Shown in pieces: positions 202-51,824 of a stretch of 64,000 nucleotides of DNA (position 1 is its first letter; every line of letters begins with the position of its first letter). The stretch is from Ginglymostoma cirratum. Lineage: Eukaryota. The notes below the pieces were generated by a model. The model had not been told where the DNA came from and made no database searches. It saw only the letters and a program-made list of their open reading frames with translations. Made by a program: the position numbers and the translations under genes. The DNA is taken from assembly GCA_024137785.1 (NCBI GenBank), contig JAHRHZ010000115.1, positions 515,579 through 579,578 of the forward strand, in the 5' to 3' direction.

Positions 202-240
202 TGTTTTTGCTCGAGTTCAGCCATTGTTTCTTGCGCTGTG
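202..240 (-). promoter_or_regulatory. V(D)J recombination signal sequence, 23-bp spacer
   Basis: Minus strand directly after the V exon: heptamer CACAGCG (240-234), 23-nt spacer, nonamer GCAAAAACA (210-202). Confidence 0.93.
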
Positions 241-714
241 GTCTGTTGTACAGTAGTAGATGGCAGTGTCTCCGAACTTTAAGTCCATCATCTTCAATGC
301 GAAGATGTCGTTTGAAGTGTCTTTGGACGCAGTAAATCGACCTTTAATCGCTGGCGCGTAGTAATTGTTCGATGAACTATGGTAGCTAACCAACGATTCC
401 AGTCCCTGTCCGGGAACCTGTCGCACCCAGCTCATCCAGTCGCTGACAAGATTGAACCCGCTGGTTTTACAGATCAGTCTCAGGACGCCTCCGGTCTCTG
501 CCTCTGGTTGAGTCAAAGTAATCTCCGACTGGACACGTTTAAAAAGAAATCAAAAGACATGCCGTGCAATCAATGTTGATGGAAAGATTTCTGAGTCCTT
601 TACATGCCTGAGGGTGACTAAGACTGAGACAGTAACAAAGAGAGACTTGAAGAATAAACACCCATATGATAATAACGCCAGTAACAAACTGAGAAAAATT
701 GTCGATGTAATCAT
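241..714 (-). pseudogene. IGHV: Immunoglobulin heavy-chain V segment, shark IgM type (leader 714-666, V exon 536-241), probable pseudogene
   Basis: Leader MITSTIFLSLLLALLS; V exon [57 protein letters not shown] with both Cys and the FR2 Trp. Donor reads ATGGGT (no GT), acceptor reads AC (no AG), about 3 codons are missing in FR1, and GLEW is GLES. Confidence 0.9.
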
Positions 715-799
715 TCTGCTAACTTGCAGAAAACTGATCTGTCAAGATATTTCTAAACAAACCAGATCCAGGAATGTTGAATTACAGTCCAGTGACTAG

Positions 800-810
800 A
801 ATTTATATGC
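800..810 (-). promoter_or_regulatory. TATA box of the VH promoter
   Basis: GCATATAAATT on the minus strand about 90 bp upstream of the leader ATG. Confidence 0.55.
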
Positions 811-973
811 CCAACGAAAGGGGCAGGCTTACAGTCTCCGTCTGTTGGTTTCCTGGTGGGTGCTATGAATGGATCCACGTACCACACCCCCTCCCCACCC
901 CCACAGCCCGACAAATTGGTCTATATATTTTCACGTTTTTATTTTAAACATGGACTATTTTCCATCGTAGGAT

Positions 974-981
974 ATTTGCAT
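974..981 (-). promoter_or_regulatory. Perfect octamer ATGCAAAT upstream of VH
   Basis: ATTTGCAT on + equals ATGCAAAT on the coding strand, 260 bp upstream of the ATG. Confidence 0.35.
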
Positions 982-28843: not shown

Positions 28844-29545
28844 TGAGATAGTAGGAACTGCAGATACTGGAGAATCTGAGATAACAAGGTGTAGAGCTGG
28901 ATGAACACAGCAGGCCAAGCAGCATCAGAGGAGCAGGAAGGCTGACATTTTGGGCTTAGACGCTTCTTTAGAAATGGGGGAGGGGAAGGAGGTTCTGAAA
29001 TAAATAGGGAAAGAGGGGGAGGCAGATAGAAGATGGATAGAGGAGAAAATAGGTGGAGAGGAAACAGACAGGTCAAAGAGGTGGGGGTGGACCCAGTAAA
29101 GGTGAGTGTAGGTGGGGAGGTATGGAGGAGATAGGTCAGTCCAGGGAGGACGGACAGGTCAAGGGGGTGGGATGAGGTTAGTAGGTAGGAGATGGGGGTG
29201 GGGCTTGAGGTGGGAGAAGGGGATAGATGGGAGGAAGGACAGGTTAGGAAGGCAGGGACAAGCTGGGCTGGTTTTGGGACGCGATAGGGGGAGGGGAGAT
29301 TTTGAAGCTTGAGAAGTCCACATTGATACCATTGGGCTGCAGGGTTCCCAAGCGGAATATGAGTTGCTGTTCCTGCAACCTTTGGGTAGCATCATTGTGG
29401 CACTGCAGGAGGCCCAGGATGGACATGTCGTCTGAGGAATGGGAGGGGGAGTTGAAATGGTTCACGACTGGGAGTGCGAACCGAGCGTAGGTGTTCTGAA
29501 AAGCGGTCCCCAAGCCTCTGCTTGGTTTCCCCGATGTAGAGGAAA
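28844..29545 (-). mobile_element. Penelope-like element family 1, 3' part (left arm of inverted composite)
   Basis: FLYIGETKQRLGDRFSEH (GIY-YIG) and a 3' region that is the reverse complement of 29850-30523. Confidence 0.92.
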
Positions 29546-30523
29546 TCATTCTCTGACACTTCCACCATCTGCAATCCGACCCCACCACCAAAGACATTTT
29601 TCCCTCCCCATCCTTATCTGCTTTCCAGAGGGACCACTCTGTCCGTGACTCCCTTGTCCGCTCCACACTCCCCTCCAGCCCCAGCACACCCGGCACTTTT
29701 CCTGCAACTGCAGGAAGTGCTACACCTGTGCCTACACCTCCCCCCTCACCCCCATCCCAGGCCCCAAGAAGACTTTCCACATCAAGCAGATGTTCACCGC
29801 ACATCTGCTAATGTGGTATACTGCATCCGCTGTTCCCGTTGTGTCCTCCCCTACATCGGAGAAACCAAGCAGAGGCTTGGGGACCGCTTTGCAGAACACC
29901 TATGCTCGGTTCGCACTAAACAACTGCACCTCCCAGTCGCGAACCATTTCAACTCCCCTCCCAATCCTCAGACGACATGTCCATCCTGGGCCTCCTGCAG
30001 TGCCACAACGATGCTACCTGAAGGTTGCAGGAACAGCAACTCATATTCCGCTTGGGAACCCTGCAGCCCAATAGTATCAATGTGGACATCACGAGCTTCA
30101 AAATCGCCCTTCCCCCTACCACTCCCAAAACCAGCCCAGCTCGTCCCCGCCTCCCTAACCTGTCCTTCGTCCCACCTATCCCCTTCTCCCACCTCAAGCC
30201 CCACCCCCATTTCCCACCTTCTAACCTCATCCCGCCCCCTTGACCTGTCCGTCCTCCCCGGACTGACCTATCCCCTCCATACCTCCCCACCCACACTCAC
30301 CTTTACCGGGTCCATCCCCACCTCTTTGACCTGTCTGTCTCCTCTCCACCTATCCTCTCCTCTATCCATCTTCTATCCGCCTCCCCCTCTCTTCCTATTT
30401 ATTTCAGAACCCCCTTCCCCTCCCCCATTTCTGAAGAAGGGTCTAGGCCCGAAACGTCAGCCTTCCTGCTCCTCTGATGCTGCTTGGCCTGCTGTGTTCA
30501 TCCAGCTCTACACCTTGTTATCT
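29546..30523 (+). mobile_element. Penelope-like element family 1, 3' part (right arm of inverted composite)
   Basis: NVVYCIRCSRC..YIGETKQRLGDRFAEH with frameshifts; TSD AAGTAAATTCAAA at 28831-28843 and 30524-30536. Confidence 0.92.
30427..30461 (+). ncRNA. Minimal hammerhead ribozyme core
   Basis: CTGAAGA-A-GGGT(CTAG)GCCC-GAAA-CGTC; stem I is weak. Confidence 0.6.
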
Positions 30524-30544
30524 AAGTAAATTCAAACGCTGCAA

Positions 30545-33163: not shown

Positions 33164-35000
33164 TCTGGGGTGGAACACATTAGCGTTGTGATTTGCTGGC
33201 GAACATGCAGCCCTCCGCTCCCTCCGCTCCAATCCCAACCTCACCATAAAACCCGCGGACAAGGGAGGGGCAGTCGTAGTATGGCGCACTGACCTCTACT
33301 TTGCTGAGGCCAGGCGCCAACTCTCTGACACCTCCTCCTACCGCCCCCTAGATCATGACCCCTCCCCCGAGCACCAAACCATCATCTCCCAAACCATGCA
33401 CAACTTCATCATCTCAGGTGACCTCCCACCCACCGCCTCCAACCTCATCATTCCCCAACCCCGCACCGCCCGCTTCTATCTCCTCCCCAAAATCCACAAA
33501 CCTGAATGCCCCGGTCGACCCATTGTCTCCGCCTGCTCCTGCCCCACCGAACTCATCTCCACCTACCTAGACTCCATTTTCACCCCCTTGGTCCAGGAAC
33601 TTCCTACCTACGTCCGTGACACCACCCACGCCCTCCGCCTCCTCCAGAACTTCCAATTCCCCGGTCCCCAACACCTCATTTTTACTATGGACATCCAGTC
33701 CCTATACACCTGTATTCCCCATGCTGATGGCCTAAAGGTCATCCGCTTAGCCGAACTCGTCCTCACCCTCAACAACTTTTCTTTCAATTCCTCCCACTTC
33801 CTACAGACAAAGGGGGTGGCCATGGGTACCCGCATGGGCCCAAGCTATGCCTGCCTCTTTGTAGGTTATATGGAACAATCCCTCTTCCGTACCTACACTG
33901 GCCCTAAACCCCACCTCTTCCTCCGTTACATTGATGACTGCATCGGCGCCGCCTCGTGCTCCCACGAAGAGCTCGAACAGTTCATCCACTTCACCAACAC
34001 CTTCCACCCCAACCTGAAGTTCACCTGGACCATCTCCAACACTTCTCTCTCCTTCCTGGACCTCTCTGTCTCCATCTCGGGCAACCACCTAGAGACAGAT
34101 GTCCATTTCAAGCCCACTGACTCCCACAGCTACCTGGAATACATTTCCTCCCACCCACCCTCCTGCAAAAATGCCATCCCCTATTCCCAATTCCTTCGCC
34201 TCCGCCGCATCTGCTCCCAGGATGAGACATTCCACCCCCGTACATCTCAAATGTCCTCATTCTTCAAGGACCGCAACTTCCCCCCCACAGTGGTCAAGAA
34301 CGCCCTTGACCGTGTCTCCCGCATTTCCCGGAACACATCCCTCACGCCCCGTCCCCACAATAATAACCAAAAAAGAATCCCCCTCGTCCTCACATACCAC
34401 CCCACCAACCTCCGGATCCAACGCATCATCCTCCGACACTTCCGCCATCTGCAATCAGACCCCACCACCGAAGACATTTTTCCCTCCCCACCCTTATCTG
34501 CCTTCCGGAGGGACCACTCCCTCCGCGACTCCCTTGTCCGCTCCACACTCCCCTCCAGCCCCACCACAGCCGGCACTTTTCCTTGTAACCGCAGGAAGTG
34601 CTACACCTGCCCCCACACCTCCTCCCTCACCCCAATCCCAGGCCCCAAGAAGACGTTCCACATCAGGCAGATGTTCACCTGCACATCTGCCAATGTGGTA
34701 TACTGCATCCGCTGTACCCGTTGTGGCTTCCTCTACATCGGGGAAACCAAGCGGAGGCTTGGGGACCGCTTTGCAGAACACCTGCGCTCAGTTCGCAACA
34801 AACAACTGCACCTCCCAGTCGCGAACCATTTCAACTCCCTCTCCCATTCCTCAGATGACATGTCCATCCTGGGCCTCCTGCAATGCTGCAGTGATGCCAC
34901 CCGAAGGCTGCAGGAACAGCAAATCATATTCAGCCTGGGAACCCTGCAGCCCAATGGCATCAATGTGGATTTCACAAGCTTCAAAATCTCCCCTCCCCCA

Positions 35001-35400
35001 NNNNNNNNNNNNNNNNNNNNNNNNNNNNNNNNNNNNNNNNNNNNNNNNNNNNNNNNNNNNNNNNNNNNNNNNNNNNNNNNNNNNNNNNNNNNNNNNNNNN
35101 NNNNNNNNNNNNNNNNNNNNNNNNNNNNNNNNNNNNNNNNNNNNNNNNNNNNNNNNNNNNNNNNNNNNNNNNNNNNNNNNNNNNNNNNNNNNNNNNNNNN
35201 NNNNNNNNNNNNNNNNNNNNNNNNNNNNNNNNNNNNNNNNNNNNNNNNNNNNNNNNNNNNNNNNNNNNNNNNNNNNNNNNNNNNNNNNNNNNNNNNNNNN
35301 NNNNNNNNNNNNNNNNNNNNNNNNNNNNNNNNNNNNNNNNNNNNNNNNNNNNNNNNNNNNNNNNNNNNNNNNNNNNNNNNNNNNNNNNNNNNNNNNNNNN
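35001..35400. other. Assembly gap
   Basis: Run of N. Confidence 1.
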
Positions 35401-35502
35401 CTTTACTGGCTCCATCCCCGCCTCTTCGACTCGTCTGCCTCCTCTCCTCTATCCGCCTCCCCCTCTCTCCCTATTTATTTCAGAACCCTCTTCCCCTCCC
35501 CC

Positions 35503-35538
35503 ATTTCTGATGAAGGGTTTAGGCCCGAAACGTCAAGT
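35503..35538 (+). ncRNA. Minimal hammerhead ribozyme
   Basis: ATTT-CTGATGA-A-GGGT(TTAG)GCCC-GAAA-CGTC-AAGT: core, 4-bp stem II, palindromic ACGT in place of stem III, 4-bp stem I. Confidence 0.75.
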
Positions 35539-36403
35539 TTTCCTGCTCCTATGATGCTGCTTGACCTGCTGTGTTCATCCAGCCCCATGCTTCTACTGGT
35601 CAACTTATGGGGTGTCAAAGTGTCACCATGCCCACACAGGTACAGGTTCCACCCCCGAAATCATCATAATGCTGGAAATTGACCTTTGAGAAACAATTGA
35701 GGACTGGAAGCATTCTGTCAGATTGAACCCTCCTTTTCTGTCCAACATCTATGAGCAAAATCCTTTCTTTTAGCTTCCTTTCTGTTTCCTTTTTTTTCCA
35801 TTCTGTGGTAAAATTATTGACTTGTAGAAACTGAAGGGAAGTAAGTGAACTTAGGCAGGGTGCAGAGTCTGTACAGGACAGGAAATAGTGACCTTGGATC
35901 TGTTTATCAGTACCTTCAGGAGAACGGGGAGGGTATATATTAGGGACAGCAGAGTGAGCATTGTGGGAGAATGTGGGAGGAGAGAGAGGAAAAAGCTATC
36001 CCAGAGGAAACTAGAATCCTCTGTTCTGAATTTTTAACTTATACTTATTCCTTTTACAGGATGCTAGAAGGTGAAGATTTGCAGACAGAAATCACAAAAC
36101 AAACATCATGTGCGGATAGTGATTAAATTAAGCAGAACTTGAATAACCATTGATGGAGAAATGTCCATTTGTTCTGTCTGCATCGAAGGTTTTAAAATCA
36201 GTTTGACTAGAAAAGCCCTGTGACACACCCTCTTACCCCAAGTAAGAGTCTTCCAGTGAACCAACTCTGGAAAAAACTTTAATCGGCGACGCAGCCTAAA
36301 TAGCATCAGACCATTCACAGCAGGGAGACACCATACCCACGCTCCGTGTGGATGAGGCTTCAGCTGATTATTGAACACTCAGAGACACAGCAACACCAAT
36401 AAC

Positions 36404-36994
36404 ATGGAGAAACCATGGAAGTGTGATGACTGTGGGAAGGGATTTCATTCGCTGTCAACACTAGAATTTCATCGACGTGGTCACAGCAGGGAGAGGCCAT
36501 TGACATGCTCTGAATGTGGAAAGGAATTCCCTAATTCGTCTGCTCTTCGGAAACATCAACGTGCTGCCACTGGAGAGAGGCCTTTTGCCTGTTCCGAGTG
36601 CGGGAAGAAATTCAGGGAATATTTCACCTTGTTGAGACACCAGCGAGCCCACACTGGGGAGAACCCATCCACCTGCTCGGAGTGTGGGAAGGTATTCACT
36701 CAGTTGTCCAGCTTGCGTGCACACCTGCGAGTTCACTCCGGGGAGAGACCATTTAGCTGTTCTGATTGTGGAAAGGAATTCATTCAATTATCACATCTGA
36801 GGAAACATGAGCAAATTCACACTGGGGAGAGACCATTCAAGTGCTCCAACTGTGGGAAACGATTCAGGGATTCATCTGGCCTACAGGTACACCAGCGAGT
36901 TCATACTGGGGAGAGGCCATTCATCTGTTCCGAGTGTGGGAAAGGATTCATTCAGTCATCACATCTGCGGAAGCATAAGCAAATTCACAAGTGA
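36404..36994 (+). CDS. C2H2 zinc-finger protein, 196 aa, 7 fingers (finger 2 lacks its last His)
   Basis: ATG in AACATGG context, MEKPWKC start, TGERP linkers; acceptor TTTTACAG at about 36059. Confidence 0.8.
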   Translation: MEKPWKCDDCGKGFHSLSTLEFHRRGHSRERPLTCSECGKEFPNSSALRKHQRAATGERPFACSECGKKFREYFTLLRHQRAHTGENPSTCSECGKVFTQLSSLRAHLRVHSGERPFSCSDCGKEFIQLSHLRKHEQIHTGERPFKCSNCGKRFRDSSGLQVHQRVHTGERPFICSECGKGFIQSSHLRKHKQIHK

Positions 36995-37039
36995 ACACAG
37001 GATCTGCTGTGAATCAGCAACAGCATCCGTTCTGTTAGG

Positions 37040-37310
37040 TTGCACCTTCGAAACTCTAAACCGCTGAAGTGTAGAACAAGGGCAACAGTTACCAGAAAAT
37101 ATGCCTCCACGTCGCACACCATCATCACTTGGAACTATATTGGCTGTTCTTTCACTGTCACTGGGTCAAAATCCTGGAACTCTTCCCTCACAGCATTGTG
37201 GGTGTCCCTACACCACAAGGACTGTAGTCCCAGAAGGCAGCTTCTCAAGCAAGACAATTCAGGATGAGCAGTAAATGCTGACATAGATATTGATACTATA
37301 CCCCATGAAT
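37040..37310 (+). mobile_element. 3' fragment of the LINE family seen at 10450-13639, in the ZNF 3' UTR
   Basis: CACTGGGTCAAAATCCTGGAACTC matches about 13500; shared tail. Confidence 0.7.
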
Positions 37311-37915
37311 TGATTTAGAAATGACCGAAAATGACATCCAGGACTGAGCCATGTTCATTTTGACAGTTGGTAAACTAGGGAGGGTCAGAAGGTTTCTTTC
37401 TGCTGGACTGGCTGCTTTCACCACTTTGCTTCCAGTGAGTCTGATGCTGTTTGAGCCTGGGATTGCACATTCCTGCCAAAATGATTCCCAAAAGCTGTGA
37501 AGGACGTTTCTCCTGCACAGTCAATAATGTTTTTCTTCCCACTACAAAATCTGACATAAATACATATGTTCGTCCCATTGAGTCTGCAGCACAGGGCTAG
37601 GCCAATCGGCTCAATTGGTCTCTGTCAGTATTTATGCTCCATGTGAGCCTCCACCCTCCACTCTTCGTCTCACCCATCAGCAGATCCTTCTGTTCCATTC
37701 TCCGACATGAATGTGTCCAGCTGCTACCCTGCTCCTTCTCAGGGGTGAAAGCTGAGTGTTTGGAAGATCTGACAAATTCTGGTCAATGTCTAGGTGTATA
37801 AAATCCGTCTCCTTCAGTTCATGCCTTTCACTCTATCTTCATATAGAAGCCAGAATCTTTGAGACATTCCCTCTCACTCTCTTGTTTTTTTTGTTGTTGG
37901 ACATCAATTATACAG

Positions 37916-38050
37916 GATATTAGAAGGGGAACATTTAAAACCAAATATCACACAAAGATTTGATGGAGTCATTCAGTTTATCACAAATGGAATGTCGTCA
38001 GGTTTTGAACATGGATGGAAAAAGCCTCGTTCACAGTGGAGAGAAACCGT

Positions 38051-38083
<33 letters not shown>

Positions 38084-39215
38084 GAGTAGGCTTCAGCCAA
38101 TCATCAGACTCCACAAACCACAAATGCAGTCACACTGGGCAGAAACAGTGGAAACGTGTGGATTGTGGGGACGAATTTGTTTTCCCATCTGAGCTGGAAA
38201 CACATTGCAGACGCACCAGTAGCAGTCCATCTACCTACTCAGTATGTGGGAAGGAGTTCCCTCAGTGATCTAACCTGCTGCAACAGCAACTCGGTCACGC
38301 TGAGGAGAGATTATTTCAATGTCTGGACTGCTGGAAGTACTGTAAAAGTCCCAGGAGGCTGCTGTGCCATCAATGTGTTCACACTGCAGACAGATCTTTT
38401 AAATATCCAGACTGTCAAAAATGCTATGAAACATCCAGGGACGTGGAGTCCCACCAATTTGCTGACACGGAGGAGAGACCTTTTAAATGCTCAAACTGTG
38501 TAAACTGCTTTAAAATCTCCAGGAACCTGATGTCCAATCAACTCGTTCACATTAATGAGAGACCTTTTAAATTTCCAGATTGTGGGAAATGCTACAAACC
38601 TTCCAGGACCTGATATCCCACCATGTTCACTCTGAGGAGAGACCGTTCATGTGCTGTCTCTGTGGGACTAAGTTCAGGCGACCATCTGAACTCATGGAGC
38701 ACCAACAGGTACACACTGGGGAGAGACTGTTCTGCTCCAGGTATGGGAGGGGATTTACTCGGTCATCCAACCTACTGAGACACCAGCCTGTTCACATTGG
38801 GAGAGTTTTTTTTGGGGAACTGCAATTACAAGCTCCTGGGGACTGACTTATCAATGTGTTCACACTGAGGAGAAACCTTTTAAATGCTCAGACTGTGGGA
38901 ATCACTATACAAGTTCCTGGGGACTGTTTTATCATCAGTGTGTTCACACTGAGGAGAGACCTTTCAAATGTCTAATCTGTGGGAAGTGTTATTGAATTTC
39001 TGTGGAACTGACGTCCCATCAACGTGTTCACATGACGACAGACCTTTCAGGTGCTTTCATTGTGGGACTGTTTTCAGGCGATTATCCCAACTCTCAGGAC
39101 CAGCGAGTTCACACTTGGGAGAAACAATTCACCTGCGCTGTGTGTAAAAAAAAAAAAAAAGTTAGCTCACTCATCCACCTTGCTGAGACAGCAGAGAGAT
39201 CACACATCTCAACAG
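37916..39215 (+). pseudogene. C2H2 zinc-finger pseudogene (more than 10 degenerate fingers)
   Basis: Repeated HTEERPFKC/HTGER units with stops and frameshifts; AATAAA at 39285. Confidence 0.9.
38053..38080. repeat. (GT)14 microsatellite inside a finger CxxC
   Basis: Direct inspection. Confidence 0.95.
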
Positions 39216-39554
39216 TGATTGGACTTTGCTGTTAATCACATCCAGAAACTGAAAGCAATGTTTAAATTTTCAGGATAAACGTTAAATAAATCAGCTTTGT
39301 GTTAAATACACTGTGGCAGGTCTTTGTAATACTTCGATTCCAAGTTAGATCCTTTTGTAGGATTCTCCCTCCCCTGCATCTTCACCTTGAACAGCCATTT
39401 GTGCATGCAGCAAGATATACATCCCAGCCCTGACATCGTTCTCCACTTTCCCTCCTGTCATACCCCATCAGAGCACATGTCCATCAAATCCACCACCTCA
39501 TCTCTTGAATCTGTTTCCTCTGACTACTGACTTCCCCAAGTTGCTTGTATTATT

Positions 39555-40574: not shown

Positions 40575-41640
40575 CTTTCCATTTGGAAAATGTTCAATGC
40601 CTCGTTTCTTCTGACCAAAGTACAGAATCTTAGTTGCCCATATTGTATTCCATTGGACACTTCTTTGCCTATTCTCCTAGCCTGTCTAAGTCATTCTGCA
40701 GCTCCTTCATTCCTCAAAACTAGCTGTCTCTCCACCTATCTGTGTGTCATTTGAAAGCCTAGCTACAATGCTTCAGTTCTTTTAGCAACTTCTTAAATGT
40801 ATATTGTGAATAGTTGTGGTCCCAACAAATGACCCCTACAAAACCCCACTAGTCACGAACTACTATCCTGAAAAAGATTCCTTCATGCCCACTCTTCTGC
40901 CAGTCATCTAATTGTTTAGAGATAAAATGTTGTGGAGCTGGATGAACACAGCAGGCCAAGCAGCATCAGAGGAGCAGGAAAGCTGATGTTTCCGGTCGAG
41001 ACCCTCCTTCGGAAATGGGGGAGGGGAAGGGGATTCTGAAATAAATAGGGAGAGAGGGGGAGGCGGATAGAAGATGGATGAAGGAGAAGATAGGTTGAGA
41101 GGAGACACAGAGGTCAAAGAGGCGGGGTTAGAGCCAGTGAAGGTGAATGTAGGTGGGGATTTAGGTGGAGGAGAAGTCAGTCCAGGGAGGACGGACAGGT
41201 CAAAGAGGCGGGATGAGGTTAGTGGGTAGGAGATGGGGGTGGGGCTTGTGGTGGGAGGAATGGATAGGGAGGTGGGGACTAGCTGGGCTGGTTTTGGGAT
41301 GTGGTCGGGGCAGGGGAGATTTTGAAGCTTGTGAAGTCCATATTGATACCCTTGGACTGCAAGGTTCCCAAGTGAAATATGAGATGCTGTTCCTGCAGCT
41401 TTCGGGTGGCATCATTGTGGCATTGCAGGAGGCCCAGGATGGATGTGTCGTCCGAGGAGTGGCGGGGGGCTGAGTTGAAATGGTTCGCAACTGGGAGGTG
41501 TAGTTGTTTGTTGCGAACTGAGCGTAGGTATTCCGCAAAGCGGTCCCCAAGCCTCTGCTTGGTTTCCCCGATGTAATTGTTTATCCTTGACTGAACTTGC
41601 CCCTAACACCATGGGCTTTTATATTCTTTAGCAGCCTGAA
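40575..41640 (-). mobile_element. CR1 RT fragment split by a Penelope insertion
   Basis: CR1 RT sequence is colinear on both sides of 40919-41573. Confidence 0.65.
40919..41573 (-). mobile_element. Penelope-like element family 1, 3' fragment with decayed hammerhead (about 40985-41012)
   Basis: Matches 28880-29540; 10-bp TSD TAATTGTTTA at 40909-40918 and 41574-41583. Confidence 0.9.
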
Positions 41641-42905: not shown

Positions 42906-43500
42906 ATAGTATCTCCATATCTGAGCCAGGAGCAGATCACAGTGAGACGCCGCCAAGACAGAGAGAGAGAGAGAGAATGTGGCTTTCTCCCACTCTCGCT
43001 CTCTTCCCCAACCCACCTCCCTCCCCGTTCTGTTCCCATCTCTCTCCCTTTCTCTCCCTCCACCTGTCCCTCGACTTCCTGTCTCCTTCTCCCTTCACCC
43101 GCCCGTCTAACTCTAACCTTCTCTCTTCCCCCACTTTCCGTCTCTCACAGTTTCACCGTCTCCCTCCTTCTAGCCCACAGAGATGCCGGACAAGGAGGGC
43201 GAGAGGCAGGAGGACAGTGAGGCCGGGATGACGGAGGAGACAGGGCTGGCTGGAGATGCCGTCCTCATACACGGAGACTCTGAGCACCTTCTGCAGCACG
43301 ACCACCATCCACGGGGCGGTGAGGCTGATCTGTACTGAGGGCAATCGGATGAAGACCAGCCTGTGGGCAGCCATCCTGGCACTCACGTTGGGTGCCATGT
43401 ACTGGCAGAACCTCCAGTTCTCGGTTCAAATCTCCCTCTTGATCCACAGCGGCAACATACAGTTCCCCGCTGTCACCGTCTGTACTCTCCACCCGTACCG

Positions 43501-43600
43501 GTAAGGCTTCCTCTACACCGTCCCCCCCCGCATCAAACAGTCCCAGGGACATTTAGGTTAGATACGGAGTTAAGGTCTCTCTACCCCGTACCCAAACTGA
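43501..43600 (+). repeat. About 68-bp tandem repeat unit, also at 44740-45000
   Basis: GTAAAGCTCTCTCTACACTGTCCCC-ATCAAACAC..GGTTAGATAC units. Confidence 0.75.
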
Positions 43601-44793
43601 TGTGAATGTATTTGTGCCCCCTGCTGGTACAAGGAGGTGAGCGTGGACCTGAAGGAGTTGGAGCTTTTGACCTGGGAGGTCCTCTATGTCCTGTGCGGCT
43701 ACGAGGGCCCCGGGGATGGAGCTCCCATGCCACCCACCCAGGGCGGCCATCCCACGGCGCCTGGGCCTGCGGCTGATCGACCCTGAGGGGCGGTGTGGTT
43801 CGCCAGCCCTGGGGATCGGGCCCTGACAGGGGGTTGCAGCGGCGGCGAGGGGAGCGCCTGGACCCACAACCCACCTTTGGTCCGCAACAGCTCCTGGAAG
43901 AGCAGCTTCAAACTGGAAAGTTCTGGAAAAGTGGCAGGGGCCTGTAGGTGTTCGGGATACGTTCTCTGATGTACCTGGGGCTGTCCTGACCCAGACCCGG
44001 GCCCGCCCCATCCAGACACGGAACCTGTTTTGCCTGGCTGATCGACCTGGTGAGGCGGCGCGGCAGTGCCTTCAAGCTCCCTCCGCCCAGGCTCTGGAAA
44101 CCTGGGACAGTCGGAGGTGAGGCCTGCCCTCATTTTGTGGCTATTCTCACTTTTTCTAACTTCCTCCCCATGCTTTCTCCACAAATCCACCCCCCCCCCC
44201 CCCCCCGCCCAACATACTCCACCGATCCCTGTCCACTGGCGGAGACTGCTTTTACAACTTGGCACTCATCCGGCGTGGTTGCCCTGAAGGAGTGGTACGC
44301 CTTCCACTACGTGAACCTTATGACACGTATCTCCCTCGATGCATCACCCTTGGACGAGGCGAAGATGGGAGAGTTCGTCCAGGATTGTCGGTTCAATGGC
44401 TTCGTCTGTAGGGAGACGTGAAGGAGAGGAGAGAGAAAGAAAGAATCAGAGGTGAGGGAATGAGAGAGATAGAAAGAGAGAGACAAAGAAGAGGTGAGGG
44501 AGAGAATGAGAGAGAGACGGGGAGTGTGGAGAGAGGGGGTGGGGACGGAGAAGAGAGAATGACAGAGACAGAGAGTGAGGAATATCACTGATCTCTCCGT
44601 CTCTGTCTCTCTCAAATTCCAGTTTCGACACGTCCTTTCACCATCCGGTTGATGGAAACTATTACACCTTCTTGGGATTAACAGCAGCTCCAAGTAGGAA
44701 TCCTCCAAGGCTGCAAAAGACCGCCATGAGTGAAAACTGAGAATAAAGCTCTCTCTTCAATGATCCCCATTAAACACGCCCATGTCAGGGACA

Positions 44794-44887
44794 AAAACAA
44801 AGTTGCTGGAAAAGCTCAGCAGGTCTGGCAGCATCTGTGGAGGAGAAAACAGAGTTCACGTTTTGGGTCTGGTGCCCCTTCCTCAGA
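44794..44887 (-). mobile_element. 94-bp Penelope-type mini-insertion (family 3) starting at a decayed hammerhead core
   Basis: Minus strand TCTGAGGA-AGGG..CCC-AAAACGTGA; TSD TCAGGGACA at 44785-44793 and 44888-44896. Confidence 0.75.
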
Positions 44888-45580
44888 TCAGGGACAGCAC
44901 AGGGTTCGATACCGAGTAAAGCTCTCTCTACACTGTCCCCCATCAAACACTCTGAGGACATGGACAGCATGGGGTTAGATACGAAGTAAAGCTCACTCTT
45001 CTCACTCTGTCTTTGTGATGCCCAGGTCTGTCCCTTGTGCTCAGGATCGAACAGAACAATTCCATTCCCTTCTTGTCGATGGCGGCTGGAGCCCGGATGA
45101 TGGTTCATAAAGGGGCTCGCTCCCCCTTCGTGGAGGACGGTGGCTTTGATTTTCACCCAGGACTGGAGACCTCTATCAGCATGAGAAAGGTGAGGGAGGG
45201 AGAGAAGGAGCCCCCCATCTCTTCCATCACCGGCCACTGCCTCACACTCTCCCTTCCTGTCTCTCTCACCTCCTCTAGCCCGTACACCCCTCCTATCTCT
45301 GTAGCCTTCTCCTACCCTTACACCCCTCCCTATCCCCATCTCTAGCTCTCTCACTGTCTCACTCTGCCCCCATTCCAGGAGGTTGTGTCTCACCTCCAGA
45401 GGGCCGTACAGTGACTGCATGGAGAACAACTCTGAGATCCGAGTTGTAACCTCTACAAATCCGACTACACCCAGCAGATAACTGGGCTGCAGTGCTGCCG
45501 GCTCACCTCTGTCTGTGGAGTTCTGGTGATCAGTGGGGAGCAGACCAGATATAATGTGCCCAAGCCTTTGCGAAGCCTGC

Positions 45581-46000
45581 AGGCCTCAGGCTTTCGGCCT
45601 GTTGTTGAAATTTGGCATTATTAGTCCTCAGACTTTTCAGCCTGTTGCCGAAATTGCCATTGCTAGGCCTCAGACTCTGAGGGCTTGTTGCTAAGGTTTG
45701 TGTTCCTAAGTCTCATCTCCTGGGCCCGTTGCAAAGGTTGGCCTCCCTAGGCCTTAGGCTCCTGGGCCGGTTGCTGATGTTTTCCTCCCTAGGCCTTAGG
45801 GTTTCTGGTCTTTTGCTAAGGTTGACATTCCTCAGCCTCAGGCTCCCAGGCCTATTGCTGAAGTTCATGCATCTAGGCCTCAGCCTCTGGAGCCTATTGC
45901 TAAGGTTGGCATTCCTAGGCCTTAGGCTCTTGGGTTTGTTGCTAATGTTCACATTTCTAGGCCTCCGGTTCTCCAGCCTGTTCCTCAGGTTCCTAGTCCT
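45581..46000. repeat. 42-bp minisatellite, about 10 units
   Basis: AGGCCT-like anchor recurs at 45581, 45623, 45665, 45708, 45749, 45791, 45833, 45875, 45917, 45959. Confidence 0.92.
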
Positions 46001-46284
46001 TCTGTTGCTGCTCTCAACATTGCAGTCCAAGCCTTTCTCAACACATCTTTCCACTCAGGCCCTGACTGTTCCTCTCTCTTTTCAACTCACCTCATCCTCC
46101 AAAAGACCTGCATCTGTTCCTACTTCTAGCTCACCATGGTATCCCACCGCAGCTGCACTTACTATTACTACTCACTGCCCCCTGTAGTGGAGTGCTGCAA
46201 TTACAACAAGCACACCTCTTGGATTAAGTGGGGCTTTAGTGATAGGCCCGTATTACATACATGGTTAGTCACATATCCTGGAAT

Positions 46285-46510
46285 GAGCTACAGATACTTG
46301 TGGCCTGTTGCTGAGGAGGAGATGGGACTTGGTCAGGATTTTGAGGAAGGTTCTTGAAGATAAGAGGGAAATTGGCCAGGATTTTGTGCCCAAGATAAGG
46401 ATGAGATGGGACTTGGCCATGATCTTGGGCCTGTTGCTGAGTTGGGAGGGAAATTGACCAATGTTTTGAGCCTGTGCTCAGGATGAGGCAGGAATTGGTC
46501 AAAGGTGATC
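46285..46510. repeat. Second, diverged 42-bp minisatellite, about 5 units
   Basis: GGCCTGTTGCTGAG at 46302 and 46428 (3x42); GATGGGACTTGG at 46321 and 46405 (2x42). Confidence 0.75.
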
Positions 46511-46678
46511 AGGAAGAACAGTTTTCTTGCTCACCTCTCTCAGTTTCTCTCACTCCCAAGACACTGTTATTACCAGTTGACACAAGAATTTACTACTGTC
46601 CTCAGTTGCTTCAAAACCTGTCGGAAGCCATGCAAGTGAGTACAAGAGCAAACAAGGAACCAGGCCTCAACCAGAACG

Positions 46679-46750
46679 CTGAGGGACCGGGCACTGTCGG
46701 ACGGTCAGCACTGAAGGACCGGGCGCTGTCAGAGGGTCAGTGCTGAGGGA
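46679..46750. repeat. 32-bp tandem repeat, 2.3 units
   Basis: CTGAGGGA/CTGAAGGA at 46679, 46711, 46743. Confidence 0.85.
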
Positions 46751-46892
46751 TTATAATTAATCTAATTCTTGATGATATTTCCAGACAAAGTGAATATCAG
46801 ATGGTAGCTGGATATGCAAACTGGCCGTCAAAAAATTCAATGGTAAGCCTAACAAAATTAAATCGGCAAAAAGCCCTCCTATATGTGGAGAC

Positions 46893-47335
46893 ATTCTCTC
46901 TCCCCACCTCTCTCTCTCTCTATCCCCTCTCTCTCTCTTTCTCACCCCCCCTCTCTCTCTCACTCTCTCCCCTCTCTGCCCCCTCCTCCCCACCTCTGTC
47001 TCCCTGCCTCTCTCTCTCCTCCTCTCTCTCTCTCCCCCACCTCTCTCCCTCCCCTCTCTCTGCCCCCTCTCTCTCTCCCCCCTCCCTTCTCTCTCTCTCG
47101 CCCCCTCTCTCTCTCCCCCTCTTTTTTTCTCTCTCTCTCACACACGCTCACATTCTCGCTCTCTCTCCTTCTCTCACTCTTTCTCTCCTTCTCTCACTCT
47201 CTCTCTCACTATGTCACATACTCTCTCACAGACACTCCCGCACTCTATCTCACCCACGCATGCTCTGTCGATGATGTTGTGTTCTTCTCTTTTTCTCTCC
47301 CCCTCTCGGCCTCTCCTTCCGCTCTCCCTCTCCTA
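46893..47335. repeat. Polypyrimidine (CT-rich) low-complexity tract; similar tracts at about 42960-43170 and 44420-44615
   Basis: Direct inspection. Confidence 0.9.
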
Positions 47336-47914
47336 CCCAAGCAGGAAGGAATTGGCCAAACTGAACTGCATATCAATGAGGGAGACCCCAGCATTGCCTG
47401 TGCATTTTCCCAGCTCCTGCTGCTTTGCAGAATCACCCTATGCACTCTCCCCAGGGTGGGCGCACAGCGGAGCAAAGTGGGAGCATGGGCATGAGCGGCT
47501 ATGCCCAGAGGGGCGAGGGAACACGTGTTAGGGGGTGGCCAAGGGCTCCAGCGAAACCTCAAAACCCAAATCTCTGGGAGAACAGTGCTATTGAGATACA
47601 TTTTTGCCAGTTCCAAGAGGTGAAAGGCATGGACCGAAGGTTTCTGAAGTGCGGGACAGGTGGGGGCGGGAATGAAGGAGATCCTCCTTTAGTCACAAGT
47701 AACATCCCATCTTGCCATTTTCTTCTCAGATGCTTGCCAACTTGGGAAACCAATGAAGTCTCTGGCTTGGCTCTTCCATCATGGACCCTGGAAATGGTGG
47801 AACTCATCTTTGACCTTATCACCATTGCAGCCATCTTGCTTAGGGCCCACCTTCTGAGCCCGAGGCCTCCCAATGAGGACTCCACCCGTCCCCCAGAGCC
47901 TGTCCCTCAAGTCT

Positions 47915-48436
47915 TTCCTTCATTCATTTGATTTCTGTGAACTCTTCCTTACTGTCCTGTTTTGACAGCATTGCCTTGATAAATTGTTTTGATCCCTCTA
48001 CTTTAATTAGTTTGTACAGTTTTGAATTATTTATTTCTTTGGTTAGACCCTCGGCATGTGACTCATACCTGTCATGTTAGTCTAGTCATTTAGTTTATCT
48101 CCACCACCACCTTTTTATTTGTAATTATCTCTCCACCTCACACTTAGATTATAGGTCATACCTTCACTGGTTATTCAGCTGTTGACACTTTACTCACAAT
48201 CTAACATTCTTGGCCACCTAAAGAGACTTATCATCTGACAATCCACTCACACCAGTTGTGTAATCTTTTGATCTCTCTGCCTACAAACTCTGGGTCTGTG
48301 TGCTCTCACTACTCATGATGAAGTGACTGCACTCTGAAAGCTTGCATGATTTCAAATAAACCTGTTGGACTATAACCTGGTGTCCTACGACTTCTGACTT
48401 TGTCCACCCCAGTCCAACACCAGCACTTCCACATCA
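47915..48436 (+). mobile_element. Penelope-like family 2, 3' region with decayed hammerhead (about 48315-48343)
   Basis: ATGATGAAG..CTCTGAAAGCTT followed by TAAACCTGTTGGACTATAACCTGGTG..CCAGTCCAACAC, repeated at about 48775-48870. Confidence 0.6.
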
Positions 48437-49900: not shown

Positions 49901-50393
49901 GCTATATGTTGAGCAGGACGTAAGTTTAGCTATCTTGCTAATCCAAGAGTGGGCTAAAGAAATGAATTCAACCACGTTAGACGTGGAGAATACTCGGGGT
50001 GAAGGAAAGGATGGACCCAGGACTTTGGATTTCAGCTCAGGGACGACGGTGTTTTGCGGGATTGGTGACTTACTCTTTTGATGAACAATACAGTTTCCAT
50101 ACAAATTGGAATTCTTGGTTTTGAATTGCTCTCCTATGCTTTTGGTGGACAGTTTTGTGAACGTCTTTCCCAAGGTTTTTTTTAGGAGTTCTCAGTATCA
50201 TGGGTCTTTGAATGCACCAGGGGAAATGTTTGTCTGTGCTGACCTGGCTGTAACATTTCACCCATCAGTGTGAGATGTGAAAAGAGCTTTAAACAGTCAC
50301 AAAACCTCATAACAAACATTACACTATTCAAAGCAGGAGAAACTCTTCAAGTGTTCTGTTCACAACCTAGAGAAACACAAGGACACATGTGCC

Positions 50394-51824
50394 ATGGAAA
50401 AACCATGGAAATGTGAGGAATGTGGTAAAGGATTTGATTACCCGTCCCTGCTGGAAAACCATCGACGTTATCACACTGGAGAGAAGCCGTTTATTTGTTC
50501 TGTATGTGGGAAGGCATTTACTCAGTCATCTGGCCTTTGGTCACACCAGCGAGTTCACACTGAGGAAAAGCTGTTCAGCTGCACTTCCTGTGGAAAGAGA
50601 TTCAGGCATTCTTCTGCCCTTACTGTGCACCAACGCACTCACAACGGAGAAAAACCATTCACCTGCTCTGAGTGTGGAAAGGGATTCACTCATTTATCCA
50701 CCCTGCAGGCACACCAGCGAGTCCACACTGGGGAGAAGCCATTCACCTGCTCAGAGTGTGGGAAGGATTTCACTCAGTTGTCCACCCTCCAGATACACCA
50801 GCGAGTTCACACTGAGGAGAAGCTGTTCAGCTGCACATCCTGTGGAAGGAGGTTCAGGCATTCTTCTGCCCTCACTGTGCATCAACGCACTCACACTGGG
50901 GAGAGGCCGTTCACCTGCTCTGACTGTGGGAAGAAATTCACTCAGTCCTTTCATCTTCAGGCACATCAGCGCATTCATACAGGGGAGAGACCTTTCTCCT
51001 GCTCTGTGTGTGGGAAGGGATTCATTGTTTTACCCACTCTGCTGAGACACCAGCGAATTCACACAGATGAGAGGCCTTTTAAATGCCCCGATTGTGAGAA
51101 GGGTTTTAAAAGTTCCCAGGAGCTGACGCTCCATCAACGTATTCACACCAATGAGAGGCCGTTCAGGTGCTCTCACTGTGGGGCTGGATTCAGGAGATCA
51201 TCTGACCTCATTCTCCACCAACGAATTCACACTGGGGAGAGGCCATTCACCTGCTCCGAGTGTGGAAAGGGATTCACTCGGACAGCCAATCTTCTGAAAC
51301 ACCAGCGATTTCACACTGAGGAAAGACCATTCAGCTGCTCAGAGTGTGGGAAAGGATTTACTCAGTCCTCCACCCTGCTGACACACCAGCAAGTTCACAC
51401 CACTGAAAGGCCTTTCAAATGTCCAGACTGTGGGAAGTGCTTTAAAATTTCCGGGGAGCTGATGCGCCATCAACGTGTTCATACTGACGAGAGACCATTC
51501 AGGTGCTCTCACTGCGGGACTGGCTTCAAACAATCATCTCAACTCAGTATGCACCAGAGAATTCACACTGGAGAGAGGCCCTTCACCTGTTCCGAGTGTG
51601 GGAAGGGGTTCACTCGATCATCCCATCTGATGATGCACCAGCAGATTCACACTGGAGAAAGGCCTTTCATATGCTCCACGTGTGAAAAGAAATTCACTCA
51701 CTTATCCAACCTGCGGAGACACCAGCGAGTTCACACAGGGGAGAAGCCATTCGCCTGCTCCGAGTGTGGGAAAGGATTCACTCGGTCATCTAACCTGCTG
51801 GCCCACCAGCGAGTTCATGAGTAA
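50394..51824 (+). CDS. C2H2 zinc-finger protein, 476 aa, 17 intact fingers, no effector domain in this ORF
   Basis: Kozak GCCATGG, MEKPWKC start, 17 C-x2-C-x12-H-x3-H units with TGE(K/R)P-type linkers. Confidence 0.93.

Follow-up and report, generated by a model that had tools for sequence, protein, structure and literature searches.

What does a broken, intron-containing ENaC gene among the zinc-finger genes of Ginglymostoma cirratum record: the loss of SCNN1A from a shark lineage, a delta-like paralogue, or a dead duplicate of a gene still working elsewhere? All three were offered by a sequence-only reading of the 64,000-nucleotide stretch analysed here (the window; contig JAHRHZ010000115.1, positions 515,579 to 579,578), and the dead duplicate is the sole survivor of the evidence from a spliced paralogue, a phylogenetic tree and an AU test.

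An alpha-type relic in a zinc-finger setting

Positions 43183–47931 hold 11 of the 12 ENaC alpha-type coding exons with gene order kept. SCNN1A coding exons are numbered 2–13 in an excerpt of PMC8662647, and by this numbering all but exon 11 are present in order:

36368–39232, plus strand: upstream C2H2 zinc-finger ORF and zinc-finger relics (neighbourhood)
43183–43500, plus strand: exon 2 relic, with ATG, 18-nt N-terminal deletion, 2-nt frameshift at ~43243, HG motif, 21-nt TM1 deletion at ~43406 and intact GT donor
43256–43501, plus strand: ORF within exon 2, 82 codons, opening at a second ATG (43256) and closed by a TAA at the donor
43627–43915, plus strand: exon 3 relic, with broken acceptor (CTG), 8-nt deletion at ~43741, 1-nt deletion at ~43827 and broken donor (GA)
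44232–44417, plus strand: exon 4 relic, with acceptor and two leading codons gone, 1-nt insertion at ~44259 and intact GT donor
44623–44725, plus strand: exon 5 relic, with 1-nt deletion at ~44672, TAG at 44695 and broken donor (AT)
45026–45189, plus strand: exon 6 relic, with open frame, both splice sites intact and Asn aligned with human alpha D338
45379–45477, plus strand: exon 7 relic, with frameshifts +1 (~45397) and −1 (~45446) and broken donor (AT)
46106–46223, plus strand: exon 8 relic, with TAG at 46127 and broken donor (TT)
46560–46635, plus strand: exon 9 relic, with broken acceptor (CAA) and one codon missing
46785–46842, plus strand: exon 10 relic, with frame and both splice sites intact
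46843–47344, no strand: CT-rich interval at the expected place of exon 11, exon not detected; bridged by no run, with depth 0 at 46922–47122
47345–47399, plus strand: exon 12 (AKLN exon) relic, with 21-nt in-frame deletion
47730–47931, plus strand: exon 13 relic, with three leading codons gone, TGA at 47754, GSS codons present, 2-nt frameshift at ~47784 and no PPxY
50313–51824, plus strand: downstream C2H2 zinc-finger ORF, 503 codons, 17 fingers (neighbourhood)

Frameshift-aware alignment of the 11 window exons gave 441 identities in 544 aligned residues (81%) to the whale-shark alpha-like protein XP_048450488 (P0005). Pieces of exons 2–3 were recovered by tblastn at E 5e-68, exon 6 by itself matched Pfam ASC (PF00858) at E 8e-9, and exon 2 matched human ENaC alpha at E 4e-22 versus delta at E 1.5e-13. 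Both the HG motif (TTIHGA) before TM1 and the GSS filter in TM2 are kept in the window copy, and the original description of a pseudogene with eleven ordered exon relics, HG and GSS stands under this alignment.

The decay is extensive, comprising (i) the three stops already reported, TAG at 44695, TAG at 46127 and TGA at 47754; (ii) eight exonic frameshifts (~43243, 43741, 43827, 44259, 44672, 45397, 45446 and 47784), with an apparent ninth at 47345 left out as merely the phase produced by the missing exon 11; (iii) seven broken splice sites among 20 (acceptors of exons 3, 4 and 9; donors of exons 3, 5, 7 and 8), where at least three had been claimed; and (iv) in-frame deletions of seven codons each at the end of TM1 (43406) and in the AKLN exon (47373), both as first noticed, accompanied by smaller ones of six codons at the N-terminus, two at the start of exon 4, one in exon 9 and three at the start of exon 13. 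The native ATG is disabled by a frameshift, with the first stop after 51 codons. The window copy cannot encode a channel subunit, having lost its open frame and several of its canonical splice sites. An exon 11 search yielded no trace (best ungapped score 24 versus 102 for self), and because its expected place is a CT-repeat bridged by no run, the exon may be either absent or repeat-collapsed.

At the C-terminus, the terminal stop of exon 13 lies at the same position as in whale-shark alpha. PPxY is absent from the window copy, likewise from all five intact carpet-shark alpha-like proteins, and is present in the alpha-like proteins of Heterodontus, Cetorhinus and Scyliorhinus torazame. At the position of human alpha D338, the window copy and intact Stegostoma alpha have Asn, and the alpha of Rhincodon, Chiloscyllium, Hemiscyllium and four further sharks has Asp.

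In addition to the flanking zinc-finger ORFs listed above, further C2H2 ORFs lie at 57.9–59.5 kb on the same strand as the ENaC copy; the initial assignment of shark origin, alpha/delta type, pseudogene status and zinc-finger setting is upheld. The zebra-shark model XP_059497708 runs from nine zinc fingers through alpha exons, which match XP_048380577 without a difference over 219 residues, to nine further fingers. Given that zinc-finger genes border the alpha exons on both sides in this model, the cluster is probably where alpha natively resides. Exon 1 was searched for with the linker of XP_059497708, giving no match. Mammalian SCNN1A is syntenic with TNFRSF1A/LTBR; PF00020 is present in two mammalian fused models (P0091 and P0099), and the TNFR parts of these models found no match within the 64-kb window. 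SCNN1D, according to the excerpt of PMC8662647, is flanked by ACAP3 and UBE2J2, whose domains did not appear when 75 of the 95 ORFs of at least 100 aa and 150 of the 152 filtered ORFs of 66–99 aa were scanned against Pfam, a method blind to short exons.

A second, spliced copy in the same species

Runs X1 and X5 carry the same species label as the window and derive from two separate studies, with no run type on record. None of the runs listed as containing the sequence is registered as RNA, which speaks neither for nor against expression. Contigs with no letters differing from the window span 43546–44401 (5 gap letters, place not shown), 45731–46735, 47217–47415 and 47728–48190 in X1, and 43688–43850, 45025–45189, 45160–45436 and 47728–48025 in X5. 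These window-identical contigs cover most lesions of exons 3, 4, 7, 8, 9, 12 and 13, letter for letter, such that the check in reads called for by the sequence-only reading confirms most lesions in contigs from two studies; the exon 5 lesions and the 2-nt shift of exon 2 lie outside the window-identical contigs shown.

The same runs contain contigs of a spliced paralogue, at depths of about 318–346 in X1 and about 8–9 in X5, with splice joints 2/3, 3/4, 4/5, 5/6 and 6/7 in X1, and 4/5 and 5/6 also in X5. The spliced contigs differ from the window at 11 of 319, 43 of 276 and 7 of 170 letters, and the frame is restored through exon 7, with six frameshifts and the 21-nt TM1 deletion absent. The paralogue is seen for exons 2–7, with no high-depth contig on exons 8–13 at 85% likeness. 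Its exon 3 glycine stretch comprises 12 residues, versus 13 in the named whale-shark protein and 11 in that of zebra shark, and this difference from both argues against contamination by either species. Because runs of the same species hold broken-copy contigs as well as the spliced paralogue, the locus reflects neither an assembly error nor a lineage loss.

Age of the duplicate

In the whale-shark EukProt set, model g17701 is of the intact type, and another model, g28324, has the identical 7-residue TM1 deletion and groups with the window copy at support 100/99. Like the window copy, g28324.t1 (EP00061_Rhincodon_typus_P007047) shares eight more substitutions relative to the intact alpha of whale shark, zebra shark and bamboo shark, and the two are 88% identical over 112 columns; unlike the window copy, it is modelled over 112 residues only and carries no pseudogene label. 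Since several sites differ between them, g28324.t1 represents another species' copy. In organism B, both runs (from two studies) revealed two exon 3 copies: the 8 nt are present in the first (26 other letters) and missing from the second (13 other letters), which aligns with 0 gaps to the window over 43605–43809. Organism B's window-like copy has its own additional 10-nt deletion. Two lesions therefore recur in related sharks, as the first reading had proposed to check: the TM1 deletion in the whale-shark model, and the 8-nt exon 3 frameshift in organism B, where it occurs beside an intact-type copy. Together these indicate that the duplicate is old.

The +1 at 44259, the broken acceptor and donor of exon 3 and the broken donor of exon 8 are absent from organisms B and C, and are thus specific to the window lineage. 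Organism C presents one copy over exons 2–5, yet two exon 6 contigs. We also considered whether organism B has the exon 5 frameshift (~44672) in common with the window, which is unsupported: X6 shows an extra letter at this site, and the X9 piece is unclear.

In the tree, the window copy falls inside the carpet-shark alpha-like clade (support 100/100) on an end branch of 0.23, compared to 0.011–0.04 for the others. Pairing with intact whale-shark alpha alone is rejected (p 0.008), as is pairing with that of zebra shark alone (p 0.015). An older split, before Hemiscylliidae, gave p 0.106, so the duplication date is loose.

Uneven decay and alternative readings

Lineage-specific changes number 75 for the window copy versus 16, in 543 sites (p 6e-10), and 15 of the 18 exonic differences to organism B's duplicate that lie among the best-supported 40 of 118 rows change an amino acid, where 72–77% would be expected under neutrality. 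The decay is unevenly distributed, affecting 4 of 93 conserved sites in exon 2 versus 71 of 391 in the remaining exons, with a longest unchanged run of 66 in exon 2 (permutation p 0.0005) and heterogeneity among the 11 exons (p 0.012); exon 4 is also little altered (5 of 57 sites). Uniform decay does not account for the low change in exon 2.

One reading of this least decayed exon is that the duplicate, dead as a channel, is still constrained there, encoding an 82-residue N-terminal peptide (HG plus shortened TM1, from the second ATG) or forming part of a non-coding transcript in which exon 13 is used as well. The open ORF at 43256–43501 fits the peptide, and a hint of splicing into exon 13 comes from the window-identical X1 and X5 contigs, which start aligning at its acceptor (47728) with 160 and 28 letters, respectively, lying elsewhere, unlike the organism B contig, which continues through the intron. 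However, gene conversion by the intact copy long ago fits equally well, given that exon 4 is little altered too; a frameshift closes the reading frame that starts at the native ATG, TM1 is short by seven residues, the window-identical contigs are of low depth (4–14; 47 at exon 13), and DNA carry-over is conceivable. We consider constraint on exon 2 improbable, albeit the best of the alternatives.

Far less room is left for a unitary pseudogene, in which the locus would be the sole alpha gene of a species without an alpha subunit. The many lesions would suit this reading, as would the raw polyA run X20 (24% read), in which no intact-type reads over exons 3–5 and no other letters at the listed sites were observed; 28 reads matched, 4 of them at 99+% likeness, with a depth of 1–3 over exon 4 and intron 4 and with first mates on the minus strand, a number insufficient for a verdict on expression. 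The lineage-specific loss of SCNN1A suggested at the outset is nevertheless contradicted by the spliced, frame-restored paralogue, seen over exons 2–7 in two studies whose runs carry the window's species label, an intact paralogue being what had been named beforehand as pointing to a simple duplicate. Moreover, whale shark has an intact alpha beside an orthologous dead copy.

A shark relic of a delta-like (SCNN1D) paralogue is scarcely credible. PPxY and the Na+-site Asp are both missing, which are delta-like traits in an excerpt of PMC11331422, but PPxY is missing from all five intact carpet-shark alpha-like proteins too. The AU test rejected a clade of the window copy with six delta rows by 253 log-likelihood units (p 1.4e-8), in keeping with the 81% identity to whale-shark alpha-like protein, so the tree of the reconstructed protein requested by the first reading places the window copy with carpet-shark alpha and dismisses its delta-like option. 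The shark alpha-like clade groups with tetrapod and coelacanth alpha (85/92), and its placement as a whole with delta is not rejected (p 0.137); an excerpt of PMC11331422 treats chondrichthyan sequences as SCNN1A.

That an assembly or base-calling error made a working gene look dead is just as implausible: three N gaps occur in the window and long simple repeats within the gene, and a collapsed repeat could account for the missing exon 11, but contigs from two studies match across most lesions of the seven exons that they cover, and two lesions are common to other species.

Discussion

The locus is very probably a broken, intron-containing carpet-shark SCNN1A duplicate, likely segmental in origin, with the separate spliced copy likely supplying the working alpha subunit; it is likely an ordinary unprocessed duplicate pseudogene, and an old one. 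A zinc-finger-flanked block with the alpha gene may have been duplicated segmentally before the intact genes of whale shark and zebra shark split. Because introns are retained, the duplication would have occurred at the DNA level and not by retroposition. Death could have followed via the TM1 deletion and the 8-nt exon 3 frameshift, prior to the split of the window species from whale shark, with neutral decay thereafter. The parent would be expected to keep a full open frame including exons 8–13, as seen for exons 2–7.

The window copy shares exon order, HG, GSS and a short PPxY-less C-terminus with the alpha-like proteins of Rhincodon (XP_048450488), Stegostoma (XP_048380577), Chiloscyllium (XP_043538347 and XP_072410691) and Hemiscyllium (XP_060677679), and differs from them in its stops, frameshifts, broken splice sites, lack of exon 11 and a branch about five times longer. 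Rodent SCNN1D pseudogenes, as described in an excerpt of Gettings et al. 2021 (PMC8662647), are likewise decaying intron-containing ENaC subunit genes with recognisable exons; those, however, are delta losses in situ between ACAP3 and UBE2J2, whereas the window copy is an alpha duplicate with a living parent in a zinc-finger setting. The earlier known duplication of the alpha gene is also comparable, although the event recorded here is far more recent, has been seen in carpet sharks only, and left a dead second copy. We found no published account of the window duplicate in a search with thin coverage of subscription journals.

A bolder interpretation, to which we attach only a slight chance, is that carpet sharks had their own alpha-ENaC duplication as a late parallel of the alpha/delta event, with exon 2 under selection and the living channel modulated by its product, either an 82-residue HG plus TM1 peptide or a spliced non-coding RNA; an intact fifth subunit might then survive in unsampled carpet sharks.

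The ordinary dead duplicate that we favour is a find of modest interest. As the species likely retains alpha and the window copy is not delta, the picture of ENaC evolution is unaffected, although the duplicate's importance would rise if the low decay of exon 2 were to reflect retained function. With a dead alpha copy lying in a zinc-finger cluster, and with such loci already mis-handled by automatic models (whale-shark g28324 and zebra-shark XP_059497708), any claim that sharks have lost or gained ENaC calls for a check that takes extra copies into account. The lesions common to several species, in turn, offer a datable marker for carpet-shark phylogeny.

A decayed ENaC alpha-type gene among zinc-finger genes

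43183-47931, plus strand: ordered relics of 11 coding exons (2-10, 12 and 13) from a gene of ENaC alpha type (the window copy)
both flanks of the window copy, same strand: zinc-finger ORFs

Exon 2 of the window copy matches human alpha ENaC (E 4e-22) better than delta (E 1.5e-13), and exon 6 matches Pfam ASC (E 8e-9), with carpet-shark alpha-like proteins as its closest relatives (85%). When the 11 exons are aligned to whale-shark XP_048450488 with frameshifts allowed, 441 of 544 residues are identical. The lesions in this alignment amount to 3 stops, 8 frameshifts within exons, six in-frame deletions and 7 broken splice sites out of 20; the ATG reading runs for 51 codons to the first stop. 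Exon bounds come from aligning the protein, from the splice consensus and from where spliced contigs join. Exon 11 was not found in the window copy, its expected place being a CT-rich interval bridged by no run. The sequence-only reading of eleven ordered exon relics bearing stops, frameshifts and broken splice sites, with zinc-finger ORFs on either side, is confirmed.

Real lesions and a spliced paralogue

Among public runs, those of organism A contain the largest share of the window's words (0.30-0.45). Contigs of run X1 show 0 other letters against the window over 43546-44401 (with 5 gap letters), 45731-46735, 47217-47415 and 47728-48190, as do contigs of X5, from a different study, over 43688-43850, 45025-45189, 45160-45436 and 47728-48025. 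These matches are the ground for taking organism A as the window's species, and they show the lesions that they span to be real. Beside these window-identical contigs, both runs contain spliced ones (depth about 318-346 in X1). Those of X1 are joined at five boundaries between exons 2 and 7, differ from the window at 11/319, 43/276 and 7/170 letters, restore the shifts near 43243, 43741, 43827, 44259, 44672 and 45397, and fill the 21-nt TM1 deletion; in X5, the spliced contigs restore the frame near 44259 and 44672 and show two of these joints. These comparisons draw on best-supported rows, and the type of the two runs is not on record. In its exon-3 glycine stretch the spliced copy counts 12 residues, where whale shark has 13 and zebra shark 11, so that organism A is probably a third carpet shark. 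Since no spliced parent-type contig was found on exons 8-13 at 85% likeness in X1 or X5, we infer the parent's full open frame from contigs spanning exons 2-7. A lineage-specific loss of SCNN1A, one of the earlier proposals, is contradicted by this spliced paralogue, whose frame is restored over exons 2-7.

The window-identical contigs of X1 (depth 47.5) and X5 start aligning at the exon-13 acceptor (47728), with 160 and 28 letters elsewhere, which faintly suggests splicing of exon 13 into another transcript.

Alpha rather than delta

A 31-row tree was built from 30 selected proteins and the window copy, its breaks written as X, with beta and gamma forming the outgroup. There the window copy nests within the carpet-shark (100/100) and shark (100/100) clades, and sharks join tetrapod and coelacanth alpha at only 85/92. 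In topology tests run without a mixture model, grouping the window copy with the six delta rows was rejected (p 1.4e-8), which contradicts the delta-like paralogue previously suggested. By sequence placement, the window copy is alpha and not delta. Grouping all sharks with delta was not rejected (p 0.137), so these data alone do not prove the shark alpha-like genes to be alpha orthologues. Chondrichthyan sequences are treated as alpha, with weak support near the alpha/delta split, in PMC11331422 and bioRxiv 10.1101/2020.10.19.344341.

PPxY is missing from all five intact carpet-shark alpha-like proteins (P0001, zebra shark; P0005, whale shark; P0002, P0010 and P0011) and kept in Heterodontus, Cetorhinus and Scyliorhinus torazame, and its absence is accordingly no sign of delta here; the strict pattern is also missing from two amniote alpha rows. 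In the same five proteins the chain stops at about 602 residues, and their stem branch is long (0.41-0.46). Intact zebra-shark XP_048380577 (P0001) has Asn where human alpha has D338, the Na+ self-inhibition site, as does window exon 6. PMC11331422 gives Asp in all alpha sequences except two, and its supplement lists no Stegostoma or Rhincodon entry; the zebra-shark Asn is possibly an unreported exception, or a product of conversion between copies.

An old duplicate that died early

Whale-shark model g28324.t1 has a 7-residue TM1 deletion in common with the window copy and shares 8 further substitutions with it against three intact proteins (grouped at 100/99); the same source also yields an intact-type model, g17701.t1. 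In both runs (two studies) of organism B, a second organism among the public runs, exon 3 occurs in two versions: one retains the 8 nt absent from the window, and the other lacks them and has 13 other letters and 0 gaps over 205 bases against the window. The window-like pieces of B, left and right joined as one copy by likeness to the window, cross introns 3 and 4, diverging there by 5-6%, and bear their own 10-nt deletion; B's intact-type lengths agree with the whale-shark protein. The remaining window lesions are absent in B and so arose later. Organism C, a third among the public runs, shows one intact-type copy over exons 2-5, yet two exon-6 contigs.

A position of the window copy as sister to the intact alpha of both whale and zebra shark has support of 86/84, and an older split was not rejected (p 0.106-0.111). 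Of 43 sites that split these two sharks from bamboo sharks, the window copy has the outgroup state at 9 and the derived state at 5, 29 being uninformative. Pairing with the intact alpha of whale shark or zebra shark alone was rejected (p 0.008 and 0.015). PMC8529718 places the split between the whale-shark and zebra-shark families near the K-Pg boundary, so the duplication probably dates back more than about 66 million years.

Uneven decay

Over 543 sites, the window copy has 75 unique changes versus 16 in whale-shark alpha (p 6e-10), and 15 of 18 listed exonic differences from B's duplicate (best 40 of 118 rows) alter the amino acid, with 72-77% expected without selection. Exon 2 has changed at 4/93 conserved sites versus 71/391 elsewhere, and includes an unchanged run of 66 sites (permutation p 0.0005, for a pattern that was picked out only once the data had been seen). 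A second ATG at 43256 opens an 82-codon ORF that retains the HG motif and a shortened TM1. Lasting constraint is a possible but less likely cause. Exon 4 is likewise little changed (5/57), and gene conversion from the parent is the simpler explanation for exon 2.

Other features of the window

217-981, minus strand: V gene segment of an immunoglobulin heavy chain, its V exon hitting Pfam V-set (E 1e-13) and having VH domains as top PDB matches
33192-35510, plus strand: ORF matching reverse transcriptase and, weakly, GIY-YIG; it runs into an N gap (35001-35400)

The V segment, separated from the rest of the window by an N gap (2517-2899), has a leader ATG near 713 and GLESL as its second conserved Trp region; the octamer-like ATGCAAAT stands upstream, and a heptamer/23-base spacer/nonamer signal follows downstream. 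The second ORF is, by its architecture, presumably a Penelope-like retroelement. A repeat of about 680 bases occurs in several copies, 82-91% identical (28876-30526, 34425-34999, 40919-41575), two forming a head-to-head inverted pair within 28876-30526. Introns 7 and 8 contain, at 45550-46000 and 46290-46500, degenerate short tandem-like repeats with ORFs of 100-170 codons, across which organisms B and C align.

Mode of origin

Because introns are kept, the duplication would have occurred at the DNA level. Zebra-shark model XP_059497708 (P0293; RefSeq, zinc finger protein 420-like) places alpha exons, some of them out of frame, between two sets of 9 zinc fingers, and is likely a mis-model. Over 219 residues its alpha exons match the intact protein exactly, and its contig equals in size that bearing the intact gene. 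It is either a faulty model of the intact gene's own locus or a copy of very recent origin, and in both cases alpha adjoins same-strand zinc-finger genes. Since alpha sits among such genes in both zebra shark and the window, segmental duplication within a zinc-finger cluster is the likely route. A Pfam scan of 75/95 long and 150/152 filtered shorter ORFs returned only zinc fingers, retroelement domains, one V-set and ASC, and TNFR sequence had no match in the 64-kb window. In Cetorhinus maximus, three alpha-like models (P0014, P0294, P0295; 99.0-99.6% identical, three small contigs) are recent duplicates or uncollapsed haplotypes.

We found no publication on this duplicate in a search of literature on shark ENaC and its pseudogenes that lay outside most subscription journals. 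Published sources report ENaC genes in chondrichthyan genomes (PMC9581171), alpha and beta transcripts in stingray kidney (PMC9396271), and an exon 2-13 scheme with delta pseudogenes in rodents (PMC8662647); nothing specific came from PMC11406177 and PMC10208646. Lesions, spliced paralogue and carpet-shark placement together bear out the dead duplicate among the original proposals: the window copy is a genuine pseudogene of carpet-shark SCNN1A, an old duplicate of the unprocessed type.
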